Shown piece after piece: positions 1 through 62,082 of a DNA stretch of 64,000 nucleotides (position 1 is the first letter of the stretch; each line of letters begins with the position of its first letter). The notes under the pieces were generated by a model, which saw only the letters and a list, made by a program, of their open reading frames with translations, searched no databases and was not told where the DNA came from. The stretch comes from Heptranchias perlo (taxonomy: Eukaryota), in assembly GCF_035084215.1 (NCBI RefSeq), contig NC_090363.1, positions 12,400,001 through 12,464,000 on the forward strand, in the 5' to 3' direction. The position numbers and the translations under genes are program-made.

Positions 1-11
1 TTAGGCAGGAA

Positions 12-81
12 ATGGGACGAGCAGCAATTTTCTACGAATCAGTCATCTGCTATCCAATTCTTGCAATTATTGGTCTTCCCA
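12..81 (+). CDS. GPR139-like orphan class A GPCR, copy 1, exon 1 (MGRAAIFYESVICYPILAIIGLP + 1 nt)
   Basis: ATG at 12; 70 nt ending at a GTAAGT donor (82). YPILAIIGLP supplies the first half of TM1, and phase 1 matches the exon-2 acceptor. Confidence 0.88.
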
Positions 82-97
82 GTAAGTAATAAATTAA

Positions 98-222
98 TGA
101 TGAAAGGTCATCGACCTGAAACGTTAACTTTGCTTGTTTGCCACAGATGCTGCCTCACTGAGTATTTCCAGCATTTTCTGTTTTTATTTCAGAGTTCCAG
201 CATCCGCAGTATTCTGCTCTTG
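98..222 (+). mobile_element. Penelope-like element terminal fragment with degenerate minimal hammerhead motif in the intron (paralogues start at ~10029, 22791, 37159, 49509, 60136)
   Basis: TGAYGAA-AGGTC-atc-GACCT-GAAACGTTAAC...CACAGATGCTGCC...GAGTATTTCCAGCATTTTCTG; recognised as a common elasmobranch repeat terminus. Confidence 0.65.
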
Positions 223-636
223 CATGAATAACAAGCATGTATTAAGTGAAACATAAATGCATTGTTGCTTTCACGTTTTGCTGTTTGCCTCCATCTCTTT
301 GTTCCTTGGTTGCCCATTTTATGATAAGCTGATTGAATAGAAATCTCTCACTTATCCTTATTTTCTTCAAAACGATAACTATTGTGATATTATAGAGTGC
401 TCTCGAAACGTATACATCAAATGCAAGTTCTCCCCTTTGATAAGCGCCTTGCAATTAGCTACCTGGAATACCTGTGGCCATCAGGTTTATCGTGAGGATC
501 ATTATGCGGAGTTTTAACCAGATTTCTCTGGCCTCCTTTCTCATAAATGATAAACAGCCAATGCTAAAGGAGTGTGATTTTATATCGCTGATCTATTTCT
601 TTGTGATTCTCCTGCTTTCTTTCCAATTTCTTTCAG

Positions 637-1532
637 CGAACCTGATGTCAGTTGTGATCCTGTCCCGGGGAAAGTGCAGTCTCTCCAAAGGAATCACTCG
701 TTACATGGCGGCCATGGCAGTAGCAGATCTAATGGTTTGCATGTTTAATGTCATTTTGCAAAATATCTTCAGGTATCATTTTCTAGATTCATGGTTGAGC
801 TACACTTACGTGTGCCGTTTTACTGCTTTTATACAAGTATTTAGCAGCCAACTCTCTGTCTGGTTCACAGTATCATTCACGTTTGACCGCTTCATATCCA
901 TTTGTTGTCAGAAACTAAAATTAAAATATTGCACAGAAAGAACTGCCACTATAGTTTTAATGATCGTGTGTGCGCTCAGCTTTTTGATGAATATTCCTGT
1001 TTATCTCCGTTATGAGCCCTACTCTATTATTGACGATATACAGTGGGGGTGCCGTACAGTAACAGGATATTATTCTTCATCCGCATGGGTAGCTTACAAA
1101 TGGATTAGCACTCTCTCATCCCTAATTCTCCCATTCCCTTTGTTATTGCTGTTAAATTCTCTCACGGCCAGGCACATCTTAGTGGCCAGTAGATCTCGCA
1201 GAGCCCTGAAGAGCCGCAACAACGGGGATAACAGCAGTGATCCCGAGATGAAGAACCGAAGAACATCCATCATTCTGCTCTTCGCTATCTCGGGCAGTTT
1301 TATTGTGTTGTGGACGCCGATTACTATAATAAACATCTGTGTCGGTGTGACGGAGACACCTACTTTCAAAGGTTCAAACTCACTTTATTTGGCAATTGGA
1401 ATCACACTTCTGCTGATGTATTTGAGCTCCTGCACGAACACATACATTTATGCATTGACCCAGAGGAGATTCCGTGAGGAGATGAAGAATATGGTGAAAT
1501 ATCCATTTACTGTCGTTAAGTTATTTAAATAA
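637..1532 (+). CDS. GPR139-like orphan class A GPCR, copy 1, exon 2 (spliced protein 321 aa)
   Basis: Polypyrimidine tract plus TTTCAG acceptor (631-636). 7TM motifs NLMSVVILSRGKC, ADL, TFDRF, LWTP, NTYIY. The ORF-track N-terminus (474-636) is intronic read-through. Confidence 0.92.
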
Positions 1533-1999
1533 TTATATTTTAATTCCTCGCATTTTCCTGGCATCTAGGTTGTTTTTTGCGACTTGAAGTTTTTGGCTGA
1601 GGCCAGTTATTGCACCCATTGGTTCTCATCCTTCCACAACATCAGTTGACCATTTTCCCACCTCACAAGGTGATGGCAGTTACGCTGCTGTTCTAAAACT
1701 CGCCATACCAATGTCAGCAAACGAATCACACCGAATCCTCCAAACATATTGCTGATAGGATAAACTTCACAATGTTTCACAATCGTCTATTTTTTGAACA
1801 ATTGAGCGAGCGAAGTTCCCAATCGGTTCCCGACGATTTGCGGAAGATTCGCTTTGGCTCCCATTGGTGAAGATATCAATTACATAACATAAAGATTCCA
1901 TCTGGTCTGTACGTGCGAGGGCGTCAGATACTCATCAGGGATACTTCTTCTGCGTCCAGTCTGTAAGGATGTCACTGTCGTCCCTGTGTGTAAGGGTTT

Positions 2000-2597
2000 G
2001 AAATTGATGCAACAGCTATACAAAGCACTGACTAAACCGCACCTGGAATACTGTGTACAGCTCTGAGCACCGCACCATCGGAAGGAAATATTGATCTTGG
2101 AGGGAGTGCTGCCTAGGTTTACGAGAATGATACCTGGACGCCAAGGGTTAAATTAGGTGAGATTACACAATCTAGGTTTGTCTTCCCTGGAATTTACAAG
2201 ATTAAGGTGTGAGTTGATCGAAGTTTTCAAGATATTAAGGGGAACTGATAGGACAAATAGAGAAAAACTATTTCCGCTGGCCGGTGAGTCTCGGACAAGG
2301 GGATACAGCCTAAAAATAGAGCCAGAACCTACAGGAGTGAAGTTATGAAACACTTCTACACCCAAAGGGAGGTGGAATTTGGAACTTTCTTCGGCAATCG
2401 GCAGTGGATGCTAGCTCTATTGTTAATTTTAAATCTGAGATTGACCTATTTTTGTTAATCAAAGGGAGTAAAGGATTTGGTGCTGAGGCGGGTATAGGAA
2501 GTTAGTGCACAGATCAGCCATGAATTCATTGAATGGAAGAACAGCCTCGAGGGGCTAAATGTCCCACTCCTGTTCCTATGATCCTATGTTCCTATGA
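2000..2597 (+). mobile_element. Old 5'-truncated CR1 LINE 3' fragment (paralogues ~14612-15190, 24650-25246, 41750-42330, 51885-52484)
   Basis: Degenerate QLYK..PHLEYCVQ..RLRCELIEVFKIL..RTRG ORF2 C-terminus and a (TTCCTATG)-type tail. Confidence 0.85.
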
Positions 2598-2784
2598 TAT
2601 CAGAAACACAACAATATATGTATTTCTTCAAAGAGTAAGGGACAGAAATTTTGTTTCTTTGTGATAAGCTTCACACTGCTGTCCTGACCGGAGATTGATA
2701 GGCAAGGGAAGTCACATCACTGGGTGTGCAAGACTATCTCACAATTGGACCATATTGGAAAATAGCAGAACCTTTTTGTTTCAT

Positions 2785-3160
2785 TTATTCTTCGAATGTG
2801 GGCATCCCTGGCTAGGCCGTCCTTTATTGCCCATCCATAGTTGCCCTGAAAACGTGATGACGGGCTTTCTTCCTTGAATCACCGTAAGTTTTTTGAAACA
2901 AATATGTGGCTTGCGTGGCCACATTTGAGTGTAGGAAAGAGTCAACCAAGCACCTCTGCGCCAGAATGGATGGCTGATTTCCTTCCCGAAAGGACATCAT
3001 TGAAACGATTGGGTTTTTTAAAGTATCGGACTGCTTTATGATCACTTTTATTGGCTTTTATTTCCATAGAAACAGAATAAAAATTCTCATAAAGTGATGG
3101 TGCAATTCACAGCATCTGGATTACTAGCCCAGCAATATAACCATTGCATTACCATACCCA
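2785..3160 (-). mobile_element. tRNA-derived SINE with LINE-derived 3' tail (paralogues ~15385-15770, 25445-26710 split by a LINE, 42525-42880, 52680-53050)
   Basis: The minus strand starts with a tRNA-like head (..TGGTTATATTGCTGGGCTAGTAATCCAGA; GTTCAA B box in B-type copies). Its 3' ~90 nt match the LINE end at 26326-26420. Confidence 0.75.
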
Positions 3161-3528
3161 TAACTTCATGATAATGCAGTGTGCAGTTGGCTCAATCCGC
3201 GAATCTGAGCCTTGTTTCTAAACAATCCGTTCCAATTAAAAGCTCATGTTTTGATGTTTTTGGCGTTAGGAGCTCAACAATTCACTTCAATGCTCAAGGA
3301 TTGTGGACGTGTAAAAGTTGGGCGGGGTCCGCTCTCCTGCTCAAATTTAAATGACCCCTCTGTGAAAGCGTGCCTGTCTGGAAGCTGGGAACAGCTGAGC
3401 TTTGATTAATCCTAGAGTACATCACATGTCAAGAATCACAGTGCATCCTCTCAGATACTGGAAGATCATACCCTCTGGACCATGTGGCAGGCTTAGCCGA
3501 AAACGTCCGTTAATGTTTACCTGTGAAA

Positions 3529-4001
3529 GCCCTTACATTTTGCAGAAATACATATGATAATGCATTGCTTATGGTATTCGTGCACACTGAAACCAAAGGT
3601 ATTCCTCATCATCTCCTGATGTCCTCCGGCGTACAGACCAATTGCAACTTCTCTGTTCTGCAGCTGATATTTTCACTCATATGGACCAAAGGCAATCTTT
3701 CCGTTCTGCAGATGATCTCGTCACTCATCGGGACCAGATGGAATCTTCCAGTTATGCATCTGATATCGTCACTCATAGGAACCAAAGGCAATTTTCTCAA
3801 TGTGTCGATTATATATTTACTCATAGCAATGAAAGGGAATCTTCCCGTTGTGTAAATAATATCTTCACTCATAGGGACCTGGTGGAATCCTGCCATTGTG
3901 TATCTGACATCTTGACTCGTAGGGGAAAAAAAGGAATTTTCCCCCCTTTGTCAAGCACTGATGGGAATCTTCTCCATCTACGTTTTTATCTCAAATATGA
4001 A
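3529..4001. repeat. Right arm of the downstream inverted repeat, with ~6-7 degenerate 48-bp tandem units
   Basis: Unit like TGATATCTTCACTCATAGGGACCAAAGGGAATCTTCCCGTTCTGCAGA; 16-aa periodicity in the overlapping ORFs. Confidence 0.85.
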
Positions 4002-5315
4002 ATGTTTTAAGCTTTAAGTTACGCATGTGATCATCTAACGTTCACCAGATTGATACATCTGGATGAAAGTGTTCAATATGTAACTTGTACTTCATTGCTT
4101 TTTCCCCGTCTACGTATGTTGTGAGTCTATCTTAAGAATTGATCGCAACTCAGGAAATGCAAAAATGTAATTCATTGCCCGCATGACTGATTGATTACTT
4201 TTTCGCTCTGCTGAGCACATCTGAATCAAAATTGCAATGAATTTATGTGATTTTAAAATATTTTTACTGAGCCAATTCACCAGAAATACTTTTCCATGCA
4301 ATTTGATTTGATATAACTGTCCTGCTTAACGAGTCGATGGCCAATTTATCAGGTCATGAGCTATCTTCGAAAGGCCTGATGTGTAAATGAGATCATTCAT
4401 GATGCAATGATTGGACGGTGATAAACTTAGACAAGAATCATTGGCGGATTAAAAGAGGAAAGTTGATTATATCGGCCTGCTATCAACAAAGTGGTGGATA
4501 TGATTGCATGATGAATGACAAAAGTAATTATTTTGGGAAAGGAACGGAGTGATGCAGAGTACAGATTGTGGGGAGTTCCTCAGTCCTAAAAGACTCAGGC
4601 GATGGGCCATGAGCAACTGCGCAAGTAGAGGGACATAAGGGGAAGTTTGACAGCAATAAGCCAATCGTTCGTTCCAAATCTTATGATATTAGCTTGTTTA
4701 ATTGTTCTATTATCATCCCTATCAATGGCTTTGAATATTTGTAAATTAAATTACCAAAACACTCACCAGTCGGAATCTGATGGTGCATAAAGGAGCCAAT
4801 GAGGTCATCAGTAGAACTGCCTCACCGAACTCCATACTGGTGATCAGAGATTGGAAGAGAACTTTCATGTCGATGGATTAATTAAGATTTAAAAATTACC
4901 TCCTTAATTTTGGAAAGCACAAGGTTAAGTGCAATAGGCCTTTAGTTAGAAAGTCTGAGCAATCGACGTTCTTTGGGATAGAACGTTGGCAAACAGCTCT
5001 ATAAGTAAAAAGGATATGAGGAATGAATGCAACCGACAGTGTGTAAACAGAACAACACGTGGCTGAGATCAGACACATGCATCTCGAAAACCATAGGAAG
5101 AATTCTACCAGAGTTAGAGTTTTTTGGAGTTAATGAAAGGCATGATCCAACATACAGTTTATTATAATGTTGAAACATTACATAATGTGGCCGTGAGAAT
5201 GCCTTGAAGACATTTTAGTGAGGTTTCACTATATGATTGGTATATTAATATATTCCAATTTGGCTTTCACAAGCTTAATCCACATTCAAACATGTGCCTG
5301 GGGCAGGAAATCAAC

Positions 5316-7195
5316 ATAGGAACAAGAGTAAACCATTTAGTCCCTCGACCCTTTCCGCTGTTCAATGAGATCATGGCTGATCTGTATCCTAACTCCATCC
5401 ACCCGCCTTGGTTCCTGATCCTTAAACAACCTTGGCTGGCAAAACTTCAATCGATGTAAGATTTATAATTATTTATTGAAGTAGCATCTGTTGCTTTTTG
5501 TGGGAGAGAGTTCCACATTGCTACCACTCTATGTGTGAAGAAATGTTTCCTAATTTCTCACCTCAAAAGCCTGGTTATGATGTTAAGGTTATGTCCCCTT
5601 GTCCGAGACTCCCCAACCAGCAGAATTTTTTCCCCTCCACCGACCCGATCATATCCTTTCCAAATCCAAAAAAAGTCAATCAAATCACCCGTTAACCTTT
5701 TATATTCGTGGGACTACAAGACTGGTTCGTGTATTCTCAGCATATAATCTAACACTTGGAGCCCTGGTAACATTTCTTCACTCAGAGGGTGGTGAACCTA
5801 TGGAATTCTCTGCCACAGAAGGCTGTGGAGGCCAAGTCACTGAACATATTTAAGAAGGAGCCAGATAGATTTCTAGACACAAAAGACATCAAGGGGTATG
5901 GGGAGAGAGTGGGAATATGGTGTTGAGATAAAGGATCAGCCATGATCATATTGAATGGCGGAGCAGGCTCAAAAGGGCGGAATGGCCTACTCCTGCTCCT
6001 ATTTTCTAAGTTTCCATGTAACATTCTGGTGAATTTGCGCTGCACTCCTTCCAAGGCCAATATATCCTTTCTGAACTGCAGTGCCCAGAACTGTACACAG
6101 TACTCTTGATGTAGTCTAACCAGGGCTTTGGAAAGCTGGAGCAAACCTTCCTCCCCTTTATATTCTAGCCCTCCACTTATAAAGGCTAACATTCCATTAG
6201 TCTTTGTGATTATTTTTTATTACCTGACTACAACATTTTAGTGATCTGTGTAGATGGACCATTAAATATCGTTGGACCTGCACTGGTCCTAACTTTTCAC
6301 CATTTAAAAATACTCGGATCAATCCTTTTTTGGTCCAAAATGGATGACCTCACACTTGTCTGAAATTAAATTTCAATAACTTCGCCACAACAAAAGTTAG
6401 ACTGACAGATTTTTAATTTCCTGGTACTTCTCTCTCGCATCTTTCTTAAATAAAGGTTTTACATTTGCAGTATTCCAATCTAAAGACGCAATTCCAGAAT
6501 CGAGAGAGTTTTGGAAGAGTATGGCTAAAGCATCTGCAATTTCCTCACCGACTTCCTTTAAAATCCAGGCGTGGAAACCATCAGGCCCTGAGGATTTGTC
6601 AGTCTATACTGCCCTTATTAATCCTAATTTTGTTGTCTTGCTTACATTAACGTCAGTGAGTTTCAGTCCTTGATTCATTATTAATTTCCCTGGAATGTCA
6701 GATATATTATCCTTTTCCTCTACTGTGAAGATTGACACAAAATAATTATTCAACAAGTCTGCCACTTCCTTATTTTCATTTGAAATATTACCAGCGTCTG
6801 TTTTGATTACCGTTTTTCTTCTAATATAATCGTAAACACCTTTTGTGTTAATCTTGGTATCCCTCGCAAGTTTCTTTTCATATTCCGTTTTTGCAGCTCT
6901 TATTATCTCTTTTTGTTTCCTTTGCTGTTCTTTATATCACCACCAGTCCCCTGGATCTACACTATTCCTTGCACTTTTTAAATGCTCTTTCGTTTAGTTT
7001 TATGTTACCTCTCATCTTTTTATTCTGCCATGGCTCTTCATTGGTACGTTACATTATTTTTTGAACACCGCCCACTGATCATCGGTAGTTTTACTCGTAA
7101 ACAGTTTTGATAAGTTTGCTTTCGTCAATCTCTGTCTCACCGCTTTAAAGTTAGACATATCACCATCTAGAATCTTAGTAATCGTGTTAGGTTTC
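5316..7195 (-). mobile_element. Old degraded CR1 LINE (paralogues ~17926-19192, 29760-31700, 45036-46285, 55205-57120)
   Basis: Minus-strand peptides LAFISGGLEYK..LVRLHQEYCVQFW..LEGVQRKFTR and further upstream ORF2 pieces. Confidence 0.85.
5775..6017 (+). mobile_element. Short nested CR1 3' end with 8-bp TSD GTAACATT (A-type marker; also 30257-30489 and 55674-55906)
   Basis: FFTQRVVNLWNSLP-type sequence plus tail. TSD at 5767-5774 and 6018-6025; empty sites at 18376 and 45486. Confidence 0.85.
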
Positions 7196-7200
7196 TCCTT

Positions 7201-7490
7201 CGGGAATGAATCATTCCCTTTTAACCACTGTGTACTGTACATGTACAGGACTGACAATGAAACACACACGGGCCGTACAGTACCAGATGTGAGCAAATCA
7301 TTCTTTTTTCCCCTTGTGTACTGTACTTATAAAGGAGCTGACATTAGGACACAAACACAGGCCGTACAATACTAGAAGGGCGTGACTCAGTCCCTTTTTC
7401 CCGCTGTGTGCTGTCCATGTGCAGAAGCTGACACTGAGACATACACGGGCCATACTGTCCCAGACGGGAGTGAACCATTCCCCTTTAATA
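7201..7490. repeat. ~88-89-bp tandem repeat (paralogues ~19903-20180, 31710-32152, 46930-47210, 57125-57590)
   Basis: Unit like GCTGACACTGAGACACACACGGGCCATACAGTACCAGACGGGAGTGAATCGTTCCCTTTTACCCGCTGTGTACTGTACATGTACAGGA; about 3-5 copies per unit. Confidence 0.85.
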
Positions 7491-7504
7491 TGTAACGTGT
7501 TACA

Positions 7505-8040
7505 TTGTGTTACATAGCATTTACAACAGAGAAACAATCCATTCGGACTTTCTCCGACATGAAGTTATCATGCTTCCCCTTAACTACATTTATAGCTTCC
7601 GCCTTAACTTCTCCATGTGGTAGCAAGTTCCATTCTCTAACAACTCTGTGGGTAAAGACGTTGCCCCTGAATTTTTTATTGGATTTATTAGTGACTATTT
7701 TATTTTCATGGCCCCTCGTTTTGGACTCCTCCACAACTGGTAACATCTTCTCTACTTCTACCCTCTCAAACACCTTCATAATCCTGAAGACCTCTATTAG
7801 GTCACCCATCAGCCTTCCCTTTTCTTGAGAAAAGATGTCCAGCCTGTTTGGTCTTTCTTAAAATTTTGATATCATCCATGTAATGTTTTTTGGAATCTTC
7901 TCTAGTGCCTCGATACCCTTTTGTAACATGGAGACCGCAGTACTCAAAGTGTGGTCGAACCAACGTTCTATTTTGGTTTAACATAACTTCTCTGCTTTTC
8001 AATTCTATTCGTTTAGAAATGAACCCCTGTGTGTTGTTTG
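7505..8040 (-). mobile_element. CR1 3' fragment (paralogues ~20195-20845, 32165-32820, 47230-47550, 57600-58140)
   Basis: GDLIEVFRIMK..KTRGH..FTHRVVREWNLLP peptide on the minus strand. Confidence 0.85.
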
Positions 8041-8044
8041 TATT

Positions 8045-9250
8045 TTTATGGCCTTGTATGGAGCAGGATGGTGCGCTCAAACGTGTCAAAGTCTGAGGTC
8101 ATGTCGAGAAGGGTGAGGAGGGATGGTTCACCACGGTCACAGTCACATGGGATGTCATTTGTGACTTTGATAAGTTCCGTTTCAATCCTGTGGCAGGAGC
8201 GGAAACCTGATTGGAGGGGTTCAAACATGGAATAGGGGGAAAGATGGGCACGGATTTCGGGAGGAGACAACAACTTCAAGGACATTGGAGCGGAAATGCA
8301 GGTTGGAGATTGTAGTTTGCAAGGGCAGATGGGCGAAGGTGTTCTTTTGAGCAGGGTTGTGATGACGACAGATTTAAAGGAGAGCGAGCCAGTAAAATAG
8401 CCATTGATTTGCTTCAAATTCTGACACAAAAGAGTTCACAGCGTGAGAGAAGTTTAGGAATACACGTCAGTCAGAAATACAAAATCTTGGAGATGCTTAA
8501 CAAGCCTGTTAACATGTGGAAGAGAAACTCAGGTTAAAACTCTGCATGAGGATCCTCACGTTAAACCTGATGGCCACAGTTATTCCAGGCAGCTTAGGAC
8601 AGGGAAACGTTAATATCATCAGCTAACATGGGGCTAGGAAGTGAAGTTGGGTGGACAGCAGTTTGGTGGGAATAGGGTCGAGGTAGCAGGAGGTGGTCAA
8701 GACTAGCTCGGAGAGCGCATGAGGAGAGACAGGCGAGAAAGTAGAGAAAGGTGGAAGTTCAAGGCTAGGGCAGGGAGGAACCTTGGGGTAAGTTTGGCTT
8801 CGTGGGTTAAGGGAAAGCAGGGAAGCGGCAGAGGCAGCAGAACGGATGGTCTCAATCTTAGTAATAACGAAGTCCATGAGCTCGTCGCACTTGTTGTTGG
8901 AGCTGACTGCAGAGGGGCAGTGATTAGAGGTTCAAGAATACCGTTTGCAGTGGAGAAATGACGCCGGGGTTAATGTTATCATTCCAGGATGGTCCTGGAA
9001 TATTGAGCAATTTTGGCAGAGGTGAATAGGACACGATAAAGCTTTATGTAGTCCAGCCAGATCTGGCAATGGATTGTTATACCAGTTGTCCGCCGTAAAT
9101 GTTCAAGTCTGGGTCCCTTGGACTTCAGGGAGGGGAGATATGGGCTGTAACGGGGGTAAGGACCAGGGTGAGAGGCAATAATTGTTTTAATGGAGCAAGG
9201 GCATCAAAGTTGGAGGTACGGTGTGATTGAGCAGATCGGTAGCCATTAGG
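8045..9250 (-). mobile_element. L2-clade LINE ORF2 fragment interrupted by an inverted intron-derived insert (paralogues ~20846-22040, 32826-36395, 47553-48755, 58147-59360)
   Basis: Peptides KIETIR..LDPIPTKLL and QSGFRSCH..ETELIKVTND..LLDLTSDFDTV, typical of L2 reverse transcriptase. Confidence 0.85.
8390..8594 (-). repeat. Inverted duplicate of a GPCR intron segment (paralogues ~21190-21395, 33166-33377, 47893-48099, 58488-58699)
   Basis: The reverse complement reads CCTGGAATAACTGTGGCCATCAGGTTT..GTGAGGATCCT..CACGCTGTGAA..AATTTGAAG.AAATCAATGGCTATTTTACTG, matching intron 10393-10750 without the MITE. Confidence 0.9.
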
Positions 9251-9820
9251 TACAGTGTAGATATTTTATATTGAAAAAAATATGCATTCAGGGTACGACA
9301 ATGACTAACAGTCACTCAATCGCCGACCATGTTGCGCTGGTGAAATTGTGTTCGTCGCACCAGCACCTGATTGAACGGTGCTGCCGGGTGATGACCCATT
9401 TTATATTCCCCTCCCAGCTCCGATATTGTATCTCATGTTGTCAATGCGATTTACTCTATCACTCTATCACTCTCACAGCTTTTTGGTATGATTTGCACTT
9501 TGACGGTTAAGTGCTAACTGACAGGTTCACATTTTATTCCCCTTCTTCTCCAATTCACTTTTAATTTTTAGAACTGGAACAACGGAGCCTTCGTAGAATT
9601 AATTAAAGCATCGAGTTACCAAGAGCTAAATAACGTCATCAAGAAACTGCTTTGAGGTCACAGTTTCAGCGCGGGGGATGACTGAGCCTCAGAGTGCCCA
9701 GTGGAGCCTCGATTTTCGCACTGCCTCATTAAATGATCGTGGAGCGCACTTTACTCATTGATTTGGAAAATAAATATGTTCTAATATGTTTGTTCGAAGG
9801 CCCGTGGCTAATACCATCTC

Positions 9821-9866
9821 TTATGTAAAACCACTGTGTCCCTGTGGGATTGACTGGTGTATAAAA
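9821..9866 (+). promoter_or_regulatory. Core promoter of copy 2: TTATGTAA, TCCCTGTGGGA, TATAAAA
   Basis: TTATGTAA at 9821-9828, TCCCTGTGGGA at 9839-9849, TATAAAA at 9860-9866; same spacing upstream of exon 1 in all visible copies. Confidence 0.65.
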
Positions 9867-9942
9867 CAGCTCCTGTTTCAGTTCATTGTCTTTGTGTCCA
9901 AACCACACCCTTGCTTCCACGATTGTCCGGTTTCGGCAGGAA

Positions 9943-10012
9943 ATGGGACGGGCAGCAGTTTTCTCCGAATCAGTCATTTGCTATCCAATTCTTGCAATTA
10001 TTGGTCTTCCCA
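9943..10012 (+). CDS. GPR139-like GPCR copy 2, exon 1 (MGRAAVFSESVICYPILAIIGLP)
   Basis: ATG at 9943, 70 nt, GTAAGT donor at 10013, TATA box 83 nt upstream. Confidence 0.88.
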
Positions 10013-10560
10013 GTAAGTAATAAATTAATGACGAAAGGTCATCGACCTGAAACGTTAACTCTGTTCCTTTCTCCAAAGATGCTGCCTCACTGAGTATTTT
10101 CAGCATTTTCTGTTTTTATTTCAGAGTTCCAGAATCCGCAGTATTCTGCGCTTGCAGTAATAACCAGCAATTATTATGTGGACCACTTTAAAATGCATTG
10201 TTGCTTTCACAATGTGCTGTTTGCCTCCATCTCTTTCTTCCTTGGTTGCCCATTTTATGGTAAGTTTATTGAATAGAAAGCTCTCACTTTGCCTTACTTC
10301 TTATAAAAGGAAAACTATTGTGATATTATATAAGGCTCTCTAAATGCATACATCAAATGCAAGTTCTCCCGTTTGTTAAACGCCTTGCAATCAGCTACAT
10401 GGAATAACTGTGGCCATCAGGTTTATCGTGAGGATCCTTATGCGGAGTTTTAACCAGAGTTTATCTTCCAAATGTCAACAGGCCGGTTACGCATCTCCAA
10501 GATTCAGTATACCTGACTCACGTGAATTCCTAAACTTCTCCCACGCTGTGAATTGACTTT

Positions 10561-10708
10561 GGGGGCGAATTCAACCTAACCCGACTGTCGGGAAACTGAC
10601 GGGATCGTGTGCATCGCTGGTTTAATACCCCATCCCATTATATCCACTATTGAACGCAAAGGGTTCTAAAACCGGCGTTTCACGCCATACTTGGGTTAAA
10701 ATTACCCC
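10561..10708. mobile_element. ~150-bp palindromic MITE in the intron (also 37692-37839, 50035-50181, 60643-60790)
   Basis: TIR-like GGGGG.AATTTAACCC / GGGTTAAAATTACCCC and inner arms CGCTGGTTTTATACCCC / GGGGTGTAAAACCGGCG; absent from the inverted intron duplicate. Confidence 0.75.
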
Positions 10709-11101
10709 TTCTGTCGCATAATTTGAAGGAAATCAATGGCTATTTTACTGAACTCTCTTCATCACTTGCTCAGGATGAAATGGCTTCTCATAAGTAATGT
10801 GTCTCCGAAAATATCATTGACAAAATCGTGAAAATGTCACAGTAAATCACGTGTGTCAAAGGAGGAGCCAATTTCCAGCAATTCGTATGCTGCACATACT
10901 TTATTCTCGACTGGAATCACTTAAATCAGCAGATAGTAGTGAGTGAATTTGGCACTGTCCTGATCTGGTTCTCTCAGTACAGCACCCGGTGAGACTGGGA
11001 GGAATCCGTCTCAGTAACAAGCCTCCTTTCTCACAAATACCAAACAGCCAATTCCAAAGGAGTGTGATTTTATATCTTGTTTTTTTTTCAATTTATTTCA
11101 G

Positions 11102-50589: not shown

Positions 50590-51485
50590 CGAACCTGATG
50601 TCAGTTGTGATCCTGTCCCGGGGAAAGTGCGGTCTCTCCAAAGGCATCACTCGTTACATGGCGGCCATGGCAGTAGCAGATCTAATGGTTTGCATGTTTA
50701 ATGTAATTTTGCAAAACATATTTAGGTATCATTTTCTAGATTCATGGTTGAGCTACACTTACGTGTGTCGTTTTACTGCTTTTGTACAAGTATTTAGTAT
50801 TCAACTCTCTGTCTGGTTCACAGTATCATTCACGTTTGACCGCTTCATATCGATTTGTTGTCAGAAACTAAAATTGAAATATTGCACCGAAAGAACTGCC
50901 TCTGTAGTTTTAACGATTGTGTGTATACTCAGCTTTTTGATGATTATTCCTGTTTATTTCCGTTATGAACCCTCCTCTATTATTGACGAAATGCCGTGGG
51001 GCTGCCGTACAGTAACAGGATATTATTCTTCATCCGCATGGGTCGCTTACACATGGATCAAAACTCTCTCAACCCCAATTCTCCCATTCCCTTTGTTATT
51101 GCTGTTAAATTCTCTCACTGCCAGGCACATCTTAGTGGCCAGTAGATCTCGCAGAGCCCTGAGGAGCCGAAACAATGGGGAGAACGGCAGTGATCCCGAG
51201 ATGAAGAACCGAAGAACATCCATCATTCTGCTCTTCGCTATCTCGGGGAGTTTTATTGTGTTGTGGACGCCGATTACTGTAATAAACATCTGTGTCGGTG
51301 TGACGGAGACACTTAGTTTCAAAGGTTCAAACTCACTTTATTTGGCAATTAGAATCGCACTTCTGCTGATGTATTTGAGCTCCTGCACGAACACGTGTAT
51401 TTATGCATTGACCCAGAGGAGATTCCGTGAGGAGATGAAGAATATTGTGAAATATCCATTTACTTTCATTGAGTTATTTAAATAA
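50590..51485 (+). CDS. GPR139-like GPCR copy 5, exon 2 (spliced 321 aa)
   Basis: TTACAG acceptor ending at 50589; intact 7TM ORF. The ORF-track N-terminus (50406-50589) is intronic. Confidence 0.92.
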
Positions 51486-53417
51486 TTAAAAGTTAATTAC
51501 TCGCATTGTCCTGGTATCTAGGTTCGTTGTTGCTACTTGAAGTATTTGGCTGAGGCCAGGTATTGCACCCATTGGTTCTCATCCTCCCACAACACCAGTT
51601 GGCCACTTTCCTACCTCACAAGATGATGGTAGTTCCGCTGCTGTTCTAAAAGTCGCCATACAAATATCAGAAAACTAATCACACCGAATTCTCCAAACAT
51701 ATTGCTGATAGGATGTTATAATATAAACTTCACAACGTTTCACAATTGTTCATTTTTTGAGATGAAAGAACAGTGAGCGAATGTCCCCATCGGTCTGTAC
51801 GTGTGAGGGCATCAGAGACTCATGGCGGATACTTCTTCTGTATCCAGTCTTGAAGGATGTCAGTTTGGTCCCTGTGTGTAAGGGGTTGGAAGTTATGCTA
51901 CAGCTATACAAAGCTCTGGTTGAAGCGCACCTGGAGTACTTTGTACAGCTCTGAGCACCGCACGTTAGGAAAGATATATTGACCTTGGAGGGAGTGCAGC
52001 ATCGGTTTACCAGAATGATACCTGGACGCCAAGGGTTAAATTAGGAGAGATTACACAAATTAGGGTTGTATTCACTGGAATTTAGAAAATTATGTTGTGA
52101 GTTGATCGAAGTTTTCAAGATATTAAGGGGAACTGATCAGGTAAATAGAGAGAAACTATTTCCGCAGGTCGGGGAGTCTAGGACTTGGGGATGCAGCCTA
52201 AAAATAGAGCCAGAACCTTCAGGAGTGAAGTTAGGAAACACTTCCACACCCAAAGGGTCGTAGAATTTGGAACTTTCTTCGGCAATCAGCGGTTGATGCC
52301 AGCTCTATTGTTAATTTTCAATCTGAGATTGATCTATTTTTGTTAATCAAAGGTAGTAAAGGATTTGGTGCTAAGGCGGTTATATGAAATGAGTTCACAG
52401 ATCAGCCATGAATTCATTGAATGGCAGAATATGCTCGAGGGGTTAAATGGCCTACTCCTGTTTCTATGATCATATGTTCCTATGATATCAGAAACACAAC
52501 AATATGAGATGTATTTCTTCAAAAAGTAAGGGACAGAAATGTCGTTTCTTTATGATAAGCTGCACACCGCTCTCCTGACTGGAGATTGATAGGCACAGGA
52601 AGTCACATCACTGGGTGTGGGGAATTATATAACAATTGGACCATATTGGAAAATAGCGGGCTCTTTTTATTTCATTTATTCTTAGAATGTGGTTATTCCT
52701 GGCTCGGCCTTCCTTTCTTGCCCATCCCTAGTTGCCCTGAGAACGTGATGACGGGTTTTCTTCCTTGAATTACCGTTAGTTTTTTGAAACAATTGTGTGG
52801 CTTGCGTGGCCACTTTAGAGGGTAGGAAAGAGACAACCAAGCACCTCTGGGCCAGAATGGATGGCTGATTTCCTTCCCTAAAGGACATCATTGAACCGAT
52901 TGGGTTTATAAAAGTATCGGACTGCTGTATGATCACTTTTACTGGCTTTTATTTCCAGAGAAACAGAAATAAAATTCTCATAAAGCGATCGTGCAATTCA
53001 CAGTCTCTGAATTACTAGCCCAGCAAAAAAACCAGTACATTACCATACCCATGACTTCAATATAATGCAGTGTGCAGCTGGCTCAATCCGCAAATCTGAG
53101 CCTTGTTTGGAAACGATCCGTACTAATTAAAAGTTCATGCTTTGATTTTTGGCGTCAGGAGCTCAACAATTCGCTCCAATGCTCAAGGATTAGGGAAGTG
53201 TAAATGTTGGGCGAGTTCCACTCTCCTGGTCAAATTTAAATGAACCCTCTGCGAAAGTATGCCTGTCTGGAAACTGGGAACAGCTTAGCTTGAATTAATC
53301 CTAGAGTGTATCACTTGTCAAGAATCACAGTGCATCCTCTCAGACACTGGAAAATCATACCCTCTGGACCATGTGGCAGGCTCAGCGGAAAACCTCCGTC
53401 AATGCTTACCTGTGAAA

Positions 53418-53888
53418 TCCCTTACATTTTGCAGAAATACATATGATAATGCATTGCTTATGGTATCCGTGCACAGGGAAGCCAAGGTATTCCTCATCAT
53501 CTCCTGATGTACTCCGGCATACAGACCAGTTGTAACTTCCCTGGTCTGCAGCTGATATTTTCACTCATGTGGAACAAAGGCAATCTTTCCGTTCTGTAGA
53601 TGATCTCGTCACTCATAGGGACCAGATGGAATCTTCCAGTTATGTACCTGATGTCTTCACTCATAGGAACCAAAGGCAATTTTCTCAATGTGTCGATTAT
53701 ATATTTACTCATAGCAATGAAAGGGAATCTTCCCGTTGTGTAAATGATATCTTCACTCATAGGGACCTCTTGGAATCCTGCCATTGTGTATCTGACATCT
53801 TGACTCGTAGGGGAAAAAAAGGAATCTTCCCCTCTTTGTCAAGCACTGATGGGAATCTTCTCCATCTACGTTTTCATCTCAAAAATTA
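53418..53888. repeat. Right arm / 48-bp minisatellite, unit 5
   Basis: Paralogue of 3529-4001. Confidence 0.85.
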
Positions 53889-56800
53889 ATAGTTTTAAGC
53901 TTTAAGTTACGCATGTGATCATCTAACGTTCACCAGATTGATGCATCTGGATGAAAGTGTCCAATATGTAACTTGTACTTCATTGTTTTTTCCCAGTCTA
54001 CGTATGTTGTAAATCTATCTTAAGAATTGATCGCAACTCGGGGAATACAAAAATGTACTTCATTGCCCGCATGCCGGATTGATTACTTTTTCGCTCTGCT
54101 GAGCACATCTGAATCAAAATTGCAATGAATTTATTTGATTTTAAAATATTTTTACTTCGACAAATCTACAGAAATATCTTTCCATGCAATTTGATTTGAT
54201 ACAACTGTCCTGCTTAACGAGTCGAAGGTCATTTAATCAGGGCATGAGCTATCTTCGAAAGTCCAGGTATGCAAATGACATCAATCATGATGCAATGATT
54301 GGACGGTGATAAACTTAGACAAGAATCATTGGCGGATTAAAAGAGGAAAGTTGATTATATCGGCCTGCTATCAACAAAATGGTGGATATAATTGCATGAT
54401 GAATGACAAAAGTAATTATTATGGGAAAGGAACGGAGTGATGCAGAGAACAGATTGTGAGGAGCTCCTCAGTCCTAAAAGACTCAGGGGATGGGCCATAA
54501 GCAACTGCGCAAGTAGAGGGACATAAGGGGAAATTTGACAGCAATAAGCCAATCGTTCATTTCAAATGTTATGATATTAGCTTGTTCAATTGTTCAAATA
54601 TCATCCCTATTAATGGCTATGAATATTTGCAAATTAAATTACCAAAATGCTCACCAGGAGGAATCTGATGGTGTATAAAGGAGCCAATGAGGTCATCAGT
54701 AGAACTGTCTCACCGCAATCCATACTGGTGATCAGAGATTAGAAGAGAACTTTCATGTCGATGGATTAATTAAGATTTAAAAATTACCTCCTTAATTTTG
54801 GAAAGCACAGGGTTAAGTGCAATAGGCCTTTAGTTAGAAAGTCAGAGCAATCGACGTTCTTTGGGATAGAACGTTGACAAACAGCACTATAAGTAAAAAG
54901 GATATGAGGAATGAATGCAACCGACAGTGTGTAAACAGAACAACACGTGGCTGAGATCAGACACATGCATCCAGAGAACCATAGGAAGAATTCGCCCAGA
55001 ATTAGAGATTTTGGAGTCAATGAAAGGCAGGATCCAACATACAGCTTTTTATAATCTTGACAACATTATATAAAGTGACCGTGAGAATGCCTTGAAGACA
55101 TTTTAGGGAGGTTTCACAAAATGATTGGTATATTGATATCTGCCAATTTGGCTTTCACATGCTTAACACACATTCAAACATGTGTATGGGGCAGGAAATC
55201 AACAGAAGAGCAAGAGTAAACAATTCAGTCCCTCGAGCGCTTTCTGCTGTTCAATGGTTGATGGCTGAGATCATGGCTGATCTGTATCCTAACTCCATCC
55301 ACCCGCCTTGGTTCCTGATCCTCAAATAACCTTGGCTAGCAAAACTGTTATCGATCTCAGATTTAAAATGATTCATTGAAGTCGCATCTGTTGCTTTTAG
55401 TGGGAGAGAGTTCCACATTGCTACCACTCTATGTGTGAAGAAATGTTTCCTAATTTCTCTCCTGAATGACATGGTTATGACTTTAAGGTTATGTCCGTTT
55501 GTCCTAGACTCACTAACCAGCGGAAAATTTTTCTCTCATCTACCCTGTCAAATCCTTTCAAAGACCCAAAAACGTCAATCAAATCACCCGTTAACCTTCG
55601 ATATTCGAGGGACGACAAACCTGCTTTGTGTATTCTCACCACATAATCTAACTCTTGGAGCCCTGGTAACATTTCTTCTCTCAGAAGGTGGTGAACCTAT
55701 GGATTTCTTTACCTCAGAAGGCTAAGTCACCGAATATATTTAAGAAAGAGCGAGATAGATTTCTAGACACAAAAGGCATCAAGGGGTATGGGGAGAAAGC
55801 GGGAATATGGTATTTAGAAAGAGGATCAGCCATGATCATGTTGAATGGTGGAGCAGTCTCTTAGGGCCGAATGGCCTAATCCTGCTCCTATTTTCTATGT
55901 TTCTATGTAACATTCTGGTGAATTTGCGCTGCACTCCTTCCAAGGCCAATATATCCTTTCGGAGGCGCAGTGCCCAGAACTGTACACAGTACTCCAGATG
56001 TAATCTAACCAGGGCTTTGGAAAGCTGCAGCAAACCTTCCTCCCCTTTATATTCTCGCCCTCTACTTATAAAGGCTCACATACCATTAGCCTTTTGATTA
56101 TTTTTTGTACTAGACTGCTACATTTTTGTGAACTGTGTAGATGGACCATTAAATCTCGTTGAGCCTGCACTGTTCCTAGATTTTCACCATTTAAAAATAC
56201 TCGGATCAATCCTTTTTTGGTCCAAAATGGATGTCTTCACACTTGCCTGAATTGAAATTTCAATAACTTCCCCACAACAAATGTTACACTAACAGATTTA
56301 TAATTTTCTGGTACCTCGCTCTGATCTTTCTTCAATAATGGAGTTATATTTGCGGTATTCCAATCTAAAGACGCAATTCCAGAATCGCGAGAGCTTTTGA
56401 AGATTATGGATAAAGCATCTGCAATTTCCTCACCTACTTCCTTTAACATCCTGGGGTGGAAACCAGGTCCTGGGGATTTGTCAGTCTATACTGCCCTTAT
56501 TATTTCTAAATCTGTTGTCTTGATTACATTAACGTCAGTGAGTTTCAGTCCTTGATTCATTAGTAGTTTCCATGGAATGTCAGGTATATTATCATTTTCC
56601 TCTACTGTGAATATTGACACAAAGTAATTATTAAGAATCTACCACTTCCTTATTTTGATATGCAATATTACCAGCGTCTGTTTTGATTACCGTATTTCTT
56701 CTAATATAATCGTAAACACCTTTTGTGTTAATCTTGGCATCCCTCGCAAGTTTCTTTTCGTATTCCGTTTTTGCAGATCTTATTATCTCTTTTGGTTTCC

Positions 56801-59800
56801 TTTGTTGTTCTTTATATCTCCCCCAGTCCCCTGGATCTAAACTATTCTTTGCACTATTTTATGTACTTTCGTTTAGTTTTATGTTATCTCTCATCTTTTT
56901 ATTCTGCCATGACTGTTTTATTTAGTACGAAGAGCTCTTGCCCCTTTGGGGTATATACTGGTCCTGTATCAAGTTAAAATCTTTATTGAACACCGCCCAC
57001 TCATCATCTGTAGTTTTACTCGATAACAGTTTGGATAAGTTTGCTTTCGTCAGTCTCTGTCTCACCGCTTTAAAGTTAGACATATCACAATCTTGAATCT
57101 TAGTAATTGTGCTACATTTCTCCCTAGGGAGTGAGTCATTCCTTTTTAGACACTGTGTACTGTACATCTACAGGACTGACACTGAGACATACATGTGCCA
57201 TACCTTACCAGACGGAATGAGTCGTTCCCTAAAACCCGCTGTGTACTGTACATGTACAGGAGCTAACACTGAGACATACATATCCCACACACTACCAGAC
57301 GGGAGTGAATCGTTCCCTTAAACCCGCTGTGTACATGTACAGGAGTTGATACTGAGACATACACGGGCCATACAGTACCAGACGCAAGTTAATTATGCCC
57401 TTGTACCCGCTGTACGCTATACGTGTAGAGCAGCTGACACTGAGACACACACACAGGCTGTACAGTACCAGAAGGGAGTGACTTATTCCCTTTTACCCGC
57501 TGTGTGCTGTCCATGTGCGGAAGCTGACACTGAGACGTACACGGGCCATACAGTCCCAGACGGGAGTGAACCATTCCCCTTTACTATGTAACGTGTTACA
57601 TTGTGTGACATAGAATTTAGAGCAGAGAGACAATCCATTCGGACTTTCTCCGACATGAAGTTATCATGCTTCCCCCGAACTTCATTTATAGTATCCGCCT
57701 GAACGTCTCCATGTGGTAGCAAGTTCCATATTCAATCAACTCTGTGGGTAAAGAAGTTTCTCCTAAATTCTTTATTGCATTTATTAGTGACTATTTTATT
57801 TTTATGGCCCCTCGTTTTGGATTCCTCCACAACTGGTAACATCTTTTCTACGTCCACCCTCTCAAACACCTTCATAATTTTGAAGATCTCTATTCCGTCA
57901 CCCATCAGCTTTCTCTTTTCTAGAGAAAAAAACTCCAGCCTGTTTGTTCTTTCTTGAAAGTTGTACCCTTTCAATTTTGATATCACCACGCAATTTTTTT
58001 CACCTTCTCCAGTGCTTCTATACCCTTTTGTAACATTGAGACCGCAGTGCTCGAAGTATGGTCTAACCAACGTTCTATAAAGGTTTAACATAACTTCTCT
58101 GCTTTTCAATTCTATTCGTTTAGAAATGAACGCCGTGTTTGTATTTTTATGGCCTTGTACGGAGGAGGATGGTGTGCTCAACCGTGTCAAAGTCTGAAAT
58201 CAGGTCGAGAAGGATGAGGAGGGACGGTTCACCACGGTCACAGTCACATAGGATGTCATTTGTGACTTCAATAAGTTCCGTTTCAATCCTGTGGCAGGAG
58301 CGGAAACCTGATTGGAGGGGTTGAAACATGGAATAGGGGGAAAGATGGGCACGGATTTCGGGAGGTGACAACTTCAAGGACCTTGGAGTGGAAATGCAGG
58401 TTGGAGATTGTAGTTTGCAAGGACTGATGGGCGAAGGGGGTTTTTTGAGCAGGGGTGTGATGACGGAAAATTTAAAGGAGAGCGAGCCAGTATAACAGCC
58501 ATTGATTTGCTTCAAATTCTGACAAAAACAGACACATAGTTCACAGCGTGAGAGAAGTTTAGGAATACGCGTGAGTCAGAAATACAAAATCTTGGAGATA
58601 CTCAACAGGCCTGTTAACATCTGGAAGAGAAACTCAGGTTAAAACTCTGCATGAGGATCCTCACGTTAAACCTGATGGCCACAGTTATTCCAGGCAGCTT
58701 TGGACAGGGAAAGGTTCACAACATCAGCTAACATCGGGCTAGGAAGAGAAATTGTGTGGTCAGCAGTTTGATGGGAATAAGGTCGAGGTAGCAGGAGGTG
58801 GTCAAGATTAGCTCGCAGAGCGCATGAGGAGAGACAGGCGAGAAAAGAGAGAAACGTAGAAGTTCAAGGCTAGGGCAGGGAGGATGCTTGGGGTAAGTTT
58901 GGTTTGGTGGGCGAAGGGAAGGGAGGGAAGCGGCAGAGCCAGCTGAACGGATGGTCTCAATCTTAGGAACAACGAAGTCCATGAGCTCGTCACACTCGTT
59001 GTTGGAGATGACTGGAGAGGGGCAGTGGTGAGACGTTTAAGAAGACCGTTTGCAGTGGAGAAAAGAAGCCGGGGTTTATGTTTTCATTCCAGGATGATCC
59101 TGGAATAGTGAACAATTTTGACAGAGGTGAACAGGAACCGATAAAGCTTTATATGATCCAGCCGGATCTGGCAATGAATTGATAAACCAGTTGTCGGCCA
59201 TAAATTTTCAAGTCAGGGTCCCTTGGACTTAAGGGAGTGGAGATGGGAGCTGTGCCAAGGGCAAGGACCAGTGTGAGAGGGAGTAATGGTTTTAATGGAG
59301 CAAGGGCAATAAAGTTGGAGGTGCGGGTGTGATTGAGCATATCGGTAGCCATTAGGTACAGAGCAGATATTTTATATTGATCAAAATAGCCATTCAGGGT
59401 ACGACTGTGACCAACGGTCACTCAATCGCCGACCATGTTGCGCTGGTGAAATTGTGTTCGTCGTACTGGCACCTGATTGAACGGTGCAGCCGGGTGGTGA
59501 CCCATTTTATATTCCATTCCCAGCTTCGATATTGTCTGTCATGAAGTCAATGCGATTTAATCTATCATTCTATCACTCTCACAGCTTTTTGATATCATTT
59601 ACACTTTGACACTTAAGTGCTAACGGACGGGTTCACATTTTGTTCCTTTCTCCTCCATTTCACTTTTAATTTTTATAACTGGAAAAACGAAGCGTTCGCA
59701 GAATTAATTAAAGCATCCTGTCACCAAGAGCAAAATAAGGTCATCAAGAAACTGCTTTGAGGTGAGAGTTTCAGAGTGAGGGGTTACTTAGCCTCAGAGT

Positions 59801-59925
59801 GCCCAGTGGAGCCTCGATTTTCGCACTGCCTCATCAAATGATGGTGGAGCGCACTTTAATCATTGATTTGGAAAATAAATATGTTCTAATGTGTTTGTTC
59901 GAAGACCCGTGGCTAATACCAGCTC

Positions 59926-59971
59926 TTATGTCAAACCATTGTCTCCCTGTGGGACTGGCGGTTGTATAAAA
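59926..59971 (+). promoter_or_regulatory. Core promoter of copy 6 (TTATGTAA mutated to TTATGTCA)
   Basis: TTATGTCA at 59926, TCCCTGTGGGA, TATAAAA at 59965-59971. Confidence 0.6.
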
Positions 59972-60047
59972 CAGCTCCTGCTTCAATTCATTGTCTTCGT
60001 GTTCAAACCACACCCTTGCTTCCACGATTGTCCGGTTTAGGCAGGAA

Positions 60048-60119
60048 ATGGGACGTGCAGCAATTTTCTACGAATCAGTCATTTTTGCTATCCTATTCTT
60101 GCAATTATTGGTCTTGCCA
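60048..60119 (+). pseudogene. GPR139-like GPCR copy 6, exon 1 with +2 frameshift
   Basis: 72 nt instead of 70 (ATTTTTGCTAT versus ATTTGCTAT); donor GTAAGC. The spliced product would stop at CAA-ACC-TGA. Confidence 0.7.
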
Positions 60120-61183
60120 GTAAGCAATAAATTAATGACGAAAGGTCATCGACCTGAAACGTTAATTCTGCTTCTTTCTCCACAGATGCTGCCTCACTGA
60201 GTATTTCCACCATTTTCTGCTTTTATTTCAGAGTTCCAGAATCCGCAGTATTCTGCTCTTGCAGTAATAACAAGCATTTATTATGTGGACCATTTTTTAA
60301 ATGCATTGTTGCTTTCACAATGTGCTGTTTGCCTCCATCTCTTTCTTCCTTGGTTGCCCATTTTATGGTAAGTTTATTGAATAGAAAGCTCTCACTTTCC
60401 CTTACTTCCTGTTAAAGGCTCTCTAAATTCATACATCAAATGTAAGTTCTCCCCTTTGTTAAACGCCTTGCAATCAGCTACCTGGAATAACAGTGGTACT
60501 CAGGTTTATCGTGAGGATCCTTATGCGGAGTTTTAACCAGAGTTTATCTTCCAAATGTCAACAGGCCGGTTGCGCATCTCCAAGATTCTTTATTTCTGTC
60601 TCACGCGTATTCCTAAACTTCTCCCTCGCTGTGAATTGACTTGGGGGCGAATTGACCCTAACTTGACTGTCGAGAATCTGACGGGATCGTGTGCAACGCT
60701 GGTTTAATACCCCACCAGATTTTATCTAATATTCAACTCAAAGGGTTCTAAAACCGGAGTTTCACGCCATACTTGGGTTAAAATTACCCCTTCTGTCGGA
60801 TAATTTGAAGGAAATCAATGGCTATTTCACTGAACTCTCTTCATCACCTGCTCTGGATGAAAAGGCTTCTCCTCAGTGATGTGCCTCCGAAAAGATCATT
60901 GACAAAATCGAGAAGCTATCACAGGAAATCACGTGTGTCAAAGGAGGGGCCAATTTCCAGCAATTCGTATGCTGCACATATTTTATTTTCGACTGGGATC
61001 ACTTAATTTAGCAGATAGTAGCGAGTGAATTTGGCACCGTCCTGATCTGGTTGTCTCAGTACAGCACCCGGTGAGACTGGGAGGAATCCGTTTCAGTAAC
61101 AAGCCTCCTTTCTCACAAATACCAAACAGCCAATTCCAAAGGAATGTGCTTTTATATCCTGTTTTTTTTTCAATTTATTTCAG

Positions 61184-62082
61184 CAAACCTGATGTCAGTT
61201 GTGATCCTATCCCGGGGAAAGTGCGGTCTCTCCAAAGGAATCACTCGTTACATGGCGGCCATGGCAGTAGCAGATCTAATGGTTTGCATGTTTAATGTAA
61301 TATTACGAAATATCTTCAGGTATCATTTTCTAAATTCATGGTTGAGCTACACTTACGTGTGCCGTTTTACTGCTTTTATACAAGTATTTAGCAGCCAGCT
61401 CTCTGTCTGGTTCACAGTTTCATTCACCTTTGACCGCTTCATATCCATTTGTTGCCAGAAACTAAAATTGAAATATTGCACCGAAAGAACTGCCAGTGTA
61501 GTTTTAACGACCATATGTGTGGTCAGCTTTTTGATGAATATTCCTGTTTATTTCCGATTTGAGCCATACTATATGGTTGATCATATACAGTGGGGCTGCC
61601 GTACAGTTACAGGGTATTTTTCTTCACCGGCATGGGCAGCTTACAAATGGATTAGCACTCTCTCATCCCCAATTCTCCCATTCCCTTTGTTATTGCTGTT
61701 AAATTATCTCACTGCCAGGCACATCTTAGTGGCCAGTAGATCTCGCAGAGCCCTGAAGAGCCGCAACAATGGGGAGAACAGCAGTGATCCCGAGATGAAT
61801 AACCGAAGAACATCCATCATTCCGCTCTTCGCTATCTCGGGGAGTTTTATTGTGTTGTGGACGCCGATTACTGTAATAAACATCTGTGTCGGTGTGACGG
61901 AGACACCTACTTTCAAAGGTTCAAACTCACTTTATTTGGCAATTAGAATCACACTTCTGCTGATGTATTTGAGCTCCTGCACGAACACGTGCATTTATGC
62001 ATTGACCCAGAGGAGATTCCGAGAGGAAATGAAGAATATGCTGAAATATCCGGTTACTCTCATTATTAAGTTACTTAAATAA
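61184..62082 (+). CDS. GPR139-like GPCR copy 6, exon 2 (open ORF; gene probably pseudogenising or N-terminally truncated)
   Basis: TTTCAG acceptor ending at 61183. ORF intact from ATG 61192, with private substitutions NSL>NYL, IILLF>IIPLF, MKN>MNN. Confidence 0.8.

Follow-up and report, generated by a model that had tools for sequence, protein, structure and literature searches.

A tandem receptor array in the shark Heptranchias perlo and the large orphan class A family of sharks and rays to which it belongs

Several large repertoires of class A G-protein-coupled receptors (GPCRs), namely OR, TAAR, FPR-rs and MRGPR, have in common a short N-terminus, tandem arrays shaped by birth and death and a variable ligand pocket, together with a conserved intracellular face and an origin from a single conserved ligand receptor. 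In TAARs and FPR-related receptors, a receptor for one ligand is conserved in one lineage, and another lineage has many copies with diversified pockets. Cartilaginous fishes are described as GPCR-poor in passages of one study (PMC8455134), and the OR, ORA and TAAR repertoires of the catshark are given as tiny, with few genes each, in passages of another (PMC11979771). Here, a stretch of 64,000 nucleotides from the shark Heptranchias perlo (RefSeq assembly GCF_035084215.1, contig NC_090363.1, positions 12,400,001 to 12,464,000) was analysed, which is referred to as the window and corresponds to 12.400-12.464 Mb of the contig called C42 in the following. Its plus strand carries six two-exon class A GPCR paralogues, five of them intact and one broken. 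From the letters alone, an original prediction had taken all six for a tandem repertoire of GPR139-like receptors diversified at the ligand-facing surface and for a candidate chondrichthyan sensing system; their number as well as all six quoted sequences of the second extracellular loop (ECL2) were exact, and so were the variants given for ECL1 (FLDS/FRDS/FLNS) and ECL3 (TPTF/TLSF).

The seven-transmembrane fold and the motifs N25, D54, DRF, P189, WTP and NTxIY place the encoded proteins in class A. An AlphaFold2 model of exon 2 of copy 4, built from a 107-row alignment, gave a bundle of seven transmembrane helices (TM) with an ECL2 hairpin at a mean predicted local distance difference test score of 87.9, and Foldseek aligned it to peptide GPCRs with a TM-score of about 0.7. 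Unlike OR, TAAR, FPR-rs and MRGPR genes, the family has an intron in its coding region and no sequence membership in any of these groups, as Pfam returned 7tm_1 alone for the window proteins and neither olfactory 7tm_4 nor V1R, TAS2R or 7tm_3 (TAAR shares 7tm_1 and is not separated in this way).

A shark and ray family with a variable ligand pocket

In this assembly, the family numbers about 2,400 loci or more and evolves by birth and death. An exact degenerate pattern for the family motif at the end of TM3 gave 2,389 matches in the genome and none with the reversed control, a count that misses some subfamilies, for example that of the window, in which Ser stands where the pattern permits Ala or Thr. 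Candidates from a first look at the genome numbered 4,743, with an internal stop in 5 of the 131 that were scored, a sample biased to the best scores. At the protein level, 1,922 relatives were found at E<=1e-20; among the best 120 of these, every named entry came from a shark or ray, and the closest ones, 86-89% identical, were labelled Heptranchias perlo. Automatic names across the family range over GPR139, opioid, melatonin, cephalotocin and C5a receptor. Database proteins of the closest copies are models of 275-277 aa that start inside TM2 and omit exon 1, and these bear the misleading names opioid, cephalotocin and C5a receptor-like. Dense motif blocks lie at 0.13-7.0 Mb of contig C2 and from 137.8 Mb of contig C3, with 70 and 30 of the first 100 matches listed, respectively. 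On contig C1317, equal-scoring family matches form pairs exactly 3,999,424 bases apart, suggesting either a recent multi-megabase duplication or an assembly duplication.

Across an alignment of 107 family sequences, entropy was 2.35 bits at 36 canonical pocket positions (a list based on general GPCR numbering rather than taken from the model) versus 1.21 bits at the other TM positions (p=1.4e-10), with 1.17 bits at intracellular positions. For 20 proteins of an amphibian sister gene, described below, the pocket positions had about 0.1 bit versus 0.49 bit overall, two of the 36 positions being without an aligned residue. Large size with birth-and-death turnover and a hypervariable pocket beside a conserved G-protein face are features of chemosensory repertoires, and it is at the level of the family, with its motif count, its pocket and its intracellular side, that the predicted lineage-specific repertoire stands.

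With roughly even confidence, the family may be regarded as a sensor repertoire, likely chemosensory, for a wide range of chemicals that are external or sampled at surfaces. Each subfamily would bind its own ligands via ECL2 together with the upper ends of TM2, 3, 5, 6 and 7, all subfamilies would signal through one common G protein, and a chemosensory epithelium would come before leukocytes as the probable site of expression.

Kinship with GPR139, GPR142 and an orphan of amphibians and sturgeon

Among solved structures, human GPR139 was the best match of the family profile (PDB 7VUG; E 1e-22, the next at 2.9e-15), and a phase-1 intron just before N1.50 occupies the same codon in the window genes and in the shark's GPR139. 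Hence, the kinship is real, and N5.58 and a GLPxN motif in TM1 are further likenesses. The profile match and the intron position would also fit duplicated GPR139/GPR142 sensors of aromatic amino acids. GPR139 and GPR142, however, are conserved single-copy genes with loci of their own in this genome (contig C25, 31.07 Mb, and contig C26, 10.78 Mb, respectively), and the window family shares only 25% identity with the shark's own GPR139; zebrafish GPR139 is 70% identical to the human protein, as stated in passages of PMC7318219. According to the same source, agonists of GPR139 are bound by E108(3x32), F109(3x33), H187(5x43), W241(6x48), R244(6x51) and N271(7x38). Their counterparts in the array are Q, V, S/N/K, W, I and L, so that just one of six residues, W6.48, is kept. 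Conversely, C3.25 and the ECL2 cysteine are kept by the family (100% and 98%) and absent from GPR139. Together with the tree test described next, this makes duplicated aromatic amino-acid sensors a highly improbable explanation, which can be regarded as largely refuted. A first motif pattern for GPR139/142 gave chance matches only. A single protein query ranked opioid receptors above GPR139, and Foldseek did not tell peptide GPCRs apart; hence, neither of these two names the family.

In a tree of 52 rows, the family formed one branch (97/93) and joined an amphibian/sturgeon clade (99/87); the next branch out was a coelacanth-teleost-frog clade with one shark orthologue. This tree is unrooted, and its reading assumes a root on the side of GPR139/142 and eight distant matches, one of them named Aplysia. 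An approximately unbiased (AU) test with 23 of the 52 rows rejected a clade of the family with GPR139/142 (p=0.0019), in agreement with the 52-row tree. The label 'GPR139-like' is accordingly right only as to a distant kinship.

The amphibian/sturgeon orphan is represented by Xenopus tropicalis XP_031757816.1, Pleurodeles XP_069092602.1 and Acipenser RXM35349.1, automatically named 'probable GPR139'. It shares the motifs FTFDR and KLK-x-YCT with the shark family, and outside their own clades the two are mutual best matches, at only 32-35% identity. Among amphibians, the gene occurs about once per species (20 rows, 66-74% identical to the query), with an invariant charged pocket composed of R2.61, D5.39, Q5.42, W5.46, K6.51, K6.55 and R7.39. 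About one conserved cluster per species listed in amphibians thus contrasts with thousands of variable copies in sharks. A one-to-one match of the amphibian gene was not found in this shark among the 119 of 4,457 candidates that were scored, the best reaching 35% in a flat ranking.

The coelacanth-teleost-frog clade probably equals GPR210A/B, low-copy orphans of coelacanth, gar and fish near GPR139/142 (Rinne et al. 2019, PMC6504862). The passages of that paper list neither a set confined to amphibians nor one from sharks, and its main text nowhere uses the word 'shark'. The single shark orthologue of the GPR139-like orphan of coelacanth lies at 14.08 Mb of contig C30 (63%).

Within the shark family, a 100/100 branch unites proteins of sharks and rays in the subfamily of the window; hence, this subfamily predates the split between sharks and rays, while the array itself is recent. 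The expansion is confined to chondrichthyans, as the original prediction had it, although the lineage as such extends to a conserved sister gene in amphibians and sturgeon. Overall, one ancestral jawed-vertebrate orphan, akin to but distinct from GPR139/142, multiplied in sharks and rays.

Turnover, selection and possible roles of the array

The array extends past the window to 20 close copies at 12.257-12.471 Mb of C42, of which 15 are intact; among the five broken ones, two have a nonsense codon, one has lost its start, one lacks the start of exon 2 and one is frameshifted. Its first 15 copies are five repeats of a unit that holds three genes and measures about 31-35 kb, and the array is a recent tandem amplification of this unit, in which unequal crossing-over would have made the copies. 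Because of this repetition, the 15 intact copies carry only nine distinct ECL2 sequences. The TM pockets of many copies are identical or one residue apart and differ at few positions overall, with two more divergent pockets in the copy g01 and in window copy 5, the latter being the most divergent of the window (I3.36, I4.57, T5.39, K5.42, T5.46). The intact copies may hence serve mostly for dosage and for fine adjustment within one class of ligands.

Protein identity among the five intact window copies is 89.5-95.8%. Alignment columns in which they differ are over-represented in ECL2, with 10 of 23 against 45 of 290 elsewhere (p=0.002 by Fisher's test, p=0.0008 by a scan statistic), and in the receptor's outer half, with 35 of 153 against 20 of 160 in the inner half (p=0.018). 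The predicted clustering of differences in ECL2 is upheld by Fisher's test for all 15 intact copies as well (p=0.005), but not by the scan statistic (p=0.076). TM4 varies as predicted; most of its differences, however, fall at 4.43-4.53, positions that the canonical pocket list does not include, and the third intracellular loop and the C-terminus vary too. In TM5, the varying canonical pocket positions are 5.39, 5.42, 5.43, 5.46 and 5.47. The ratio pN/pS was 0.40-0.44 for the whole gene, 0.64-0.72 for ECL2 and 1.3-1.6 for TM4.

Recombination among the array copies was detected by a test of the PHI (pairwise homoplasy index) type (p=0.0002). Among eight non-redundant copies, four-fold site divergence was 8.3% in codons 1-124, 10.7% in codons 125-186 and 2.5% in codons 187-290, with about 13% in the flanks. 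Thus, the homogenisation of TM5-TM7 includes silent sites, while the divergence of TM4-ECL2 is about as large as that of the non-coding flanks. TM6-TM7 are almost invariant, as had been noted, yet since this near-invariance extends to silent sites, it is best read as gene conversion. Codon models (GY94) were fitted to the 15 intact copies with trees per segment in an approximate implementation of our own with low power. The ratio of nonsynonymous to synonymous rates (omega) was 0.20 for codons 1-124, 1.06 for codons 125-186 and 0.56 for codons 187-313. By region, omega was 0.51 for the intracellular side, 0.55 for the outer loops other than ECL2 and 0.22 for the TM core outside the pocket. ECL2 evolves faster than the intracellular side, but not beyond neutrality; the expectation of a higher ratio at extracellular than at intracellular sites is borne out by this loop only, the remaining outer loops being level with the inside. 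Within the array, the differences are indistinguishable from relaxed drift plus gene conversion.

A number of these and other results weigh against a chemosensory repertoire as the reading of the family. Positive selection was not significant in any comparison of site models (M2a versus M1a, p=0.20 with segment trees and 0.115 with one tree; M8 versus M7, p=0.074; M8 versus M8a, p=0.069). The omega of 1.29 for ECL2 has a confidence interval of 0.8-1.68 that includes 1, the class of 36 TM pocket positions lies below 1 (0.63), and TM4 outside the pocket, with an omega of 1.0, is about as fast as ECL2, so that an adaptive origin of the ligand-face differences between the six copies, as originally proposed, is not borne out. 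The heterogeneity of four-fold sites alone gave p=0.06 in a site-count test, 5 of the 20 array copies are broken, and the 2,389 motif matches take in pseudogenes and, probably, segments that are duplicated in the assembly. In the 23-row tree, the branch uniting the family with the amphibian gene reached only 90/89 and was not starred. The array moreover adjoins the complement gene C4, which favours an immune role. Finally, in any GPCR family the pocket tends to vary more than the microswitch positions, and for this reason the entropy contrast alone names no sense.

Part of this evidence, namely an omega of about 1 in TM4-ECL2 in the absence of significant positive selection, the broken copies, a three-gene unit repeated almost unchanged and the many TM pockets that are identical or one residue apart, would be expected if a small, easily duplicated gene had been amplified neutrally by segmental duplication, with mostly redundant copies and a pocket varying under relaxed constraint. 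Such an amplification is nevertheless judged distinctly unlikely, as it is at odds with the low omega of the TM core, with the retention of the window's subfamily in both sharks and rays and with the concentration of family-wide variation on pocket positions. The promoters speak against it as well: even subfamilies that are about 50% identical keep the word TGTTTGTTC and, at fixed spacing, a TATA box situated some 80 bases upstream. Against a relative 1 Mb away, the promoter has diverged by 12-13%, exon 2 by 15-17% and the introns by 21-34%. A promoter conserved above the coding exon and purifying selection on the TM core argue that these genes are in use.

Evidence for another role comes from the neighbourhood. 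Upstream of the array, with about 50 kb in between, exons of complement C4 lie on the minus strand at about 12.18-12.21 Mb of C42, including an anaphylatoxin exon and an acidic RRRR junction; the exon with the thioester GCAEQ best matches human C4 (E 2.9e-16, versus 1e-10 for C3), although a profile of the A2M receptor domain missed this gene. All elasmobranch c4 genes described in passages of PMC10751288 map to the chromosome of the major histocompatibility complex (MHC), and no 'GPR' or 'G protein' string occurs in the text of these passages. The proximity of C4 suggests that the array may be located in the MHC region. Searches for MHC class I and class II alpha gave no match on C42, and the one for class II beta gave no match anywhere; hence, this location rests on C4 and on the mapping cited above. 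With such a setting, the family could be a repertoire for innate-immune or barrier surveillance, comparable to formyl-peptide receptors and MRGPRs, in which leukocytes or the epithelium of skin, gill or gut would detect peptides and metabolites of microbial or damage origin. Hypervariable pockets and birth-and-death evolution would suit immune receptors equally well. Most family loci, however, reside on contigs other than C42, the MHC searches add nothing in its favour, and none of the strings 'gpr139', 'receptor 139' and 'gpr142' occurs in the 4 supplementary files of a single-cell study of shark lymphocytes, a weak point since gene identifiers may differ. An immune repertoire is therefore considered rather unlikely.

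Compared with these alternatives, a repertoire of receptors that are likely chemosensory is preferred. An extended form of it can be put forward tentatively, at somewhat less than even confidence: the family would be a fifth, hitherto unrecognised and very large chemosensory family of sharks and rays, with thousands of genes from one orphan (the gene conserved in amphibians and sturgeon), in which conversion homogenises the signalling half while selection shields the TM4-ECL2-TM5 lid from it.

The window copies, their surroundings and the meaning of the family

The predicted gene structure comprises a 70-bp exon 1 that ends in TM1, a GT-AG intron of phase 1 and an exon 2 of 896-902 bp, all on the plus strand. 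Copy 1 has its exon 1, from the ATG to mid-TM1, at 12..81 and its exon 2 at 637..1532, coding for 321 aa with the ECL2 YLRYEPYSIIDDIQW and matching Pfam 7tm_1 with E 1.1e-25. Copies 2 (9943..10012 and 11102..11997; 321 aa), 4 (37073..37142 and 38233..39134; 323 aa, the copy modelled above) and 5 (49423..49492 and 50590..51485; 321 aa) are likewise intact. So is copy 3 (22705..22774 and 23317..24215; 322 aa), which has a mosaic history: its codons 1-124 go with the A-type copies at weak support (57) and its codons 125-186 with the B-type copies (100). In copy 6, exon 1 (60048..60119) measures 72 bp, and the resulting +2 frameshift, read from the assembly sequence, leads to a first stop after 26 codons (donor GTAAGC). 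Its exon 2 (61184..62082) is open but does not continue the frame of exon 1 and carries private changes from Leu to Pro in TM6 and from Ser to Tyr in TM5. Owing to this frameshift and the other private damage, only five of the six paralogues are intact. Four sequencing runs, presumed to come from RNA, covered exon 2 only by short contigs of low depth and yielded neither cover of exon 1 nor a joint between the exons, which speaks neither for nor against expression. In the same runs, a short repeat in the intron of copy 4 (window about 37159-37284), which is probably a short interspersed element, appears at very high depth.

The proximal promoter words of copy 2 span 9787..9868 on the plus strand, with TGTTTGTTC at 9787-9795 and the TATA-like GGTGTATAAAACA at 9856-9868. 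Copy 3 combines TGTTTGTTC with a CATAAAA variant (22549..22630, plus strand) and copy 4 with TATAAAA (36917..36998, plus strand). Copy 5 has a promoter word at 49336-49348 without an exact TGTTTGTTC, and copy 6 one at 59892-59900 without the exact TATA pattern of copies 2-5. We take TGTTTGTTC to resemble a Forkhead site. Olfactory (O/E) and immune transcription-factor words showed no consistent pattern in the upstream regions.

The whole window (1..64000, plus strand) is made up of tandem duplication units of 10-14 kb, each with a gene, shared flanks, fragments of long interspersed elements (LINEs) and minisatellites with units of 48 and 88 bp; their longest aligned blocks are 81-93% identical, and both minisatellites travel with the units. 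Between the copies, fragmented LINEs with Pfam reverse transcriptase and endonuclease domains lie at 26820-29132 (minus) and 33421-35705 (plus). Degenerate 48-bp-unit minisatellites occur at 3636-3943, 16262-16547, 43377-43657 and 53552-53831, and those with 88-bp units at 7202-7486, 19929-20180, 31738-32125, 46956-47202 and 57127-57584. Downstream of the array, a second cluster at 12.505-12.637 Mb of C42 holds ten loci of other subfamilies (41-56% identity), three of them with split frames, and has recent tandem copies of its own; an inverted close copy follows at 12.654 Mb.

A literature search by title and start of abstract found no paper describing the shark expansion. Multi-copy 'GPR139' is said to have been mentioned for white and whale shark by Marra et al. 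in 2019, and the expansion may thus have been noted in print already. No string matching the family names occurs in the supplements of PMC13188829, PMC11372145 and PMC10529500, and for that of PMC13689627, the 4 places seen among its 27 matches are orthologue-mapping rows only. An expanded repertoire of class A sensors is of a known kind, while this particular family seems to be uncharacterised.

The array described here illustrates in detail the turnover of the family, but by itself displays no significant adaptive diversification. For the ligand and tissue of the ancestral receptor, the conserved sister gene of Xenopus offers a laboratory handle. If sensory or immune cells do express them, about 2,400 loci carried under wrong automatic names would overturn the picture of cartilaginous fishes as GPCR-poor and endowed with few OR, ORA and TAAR genes.

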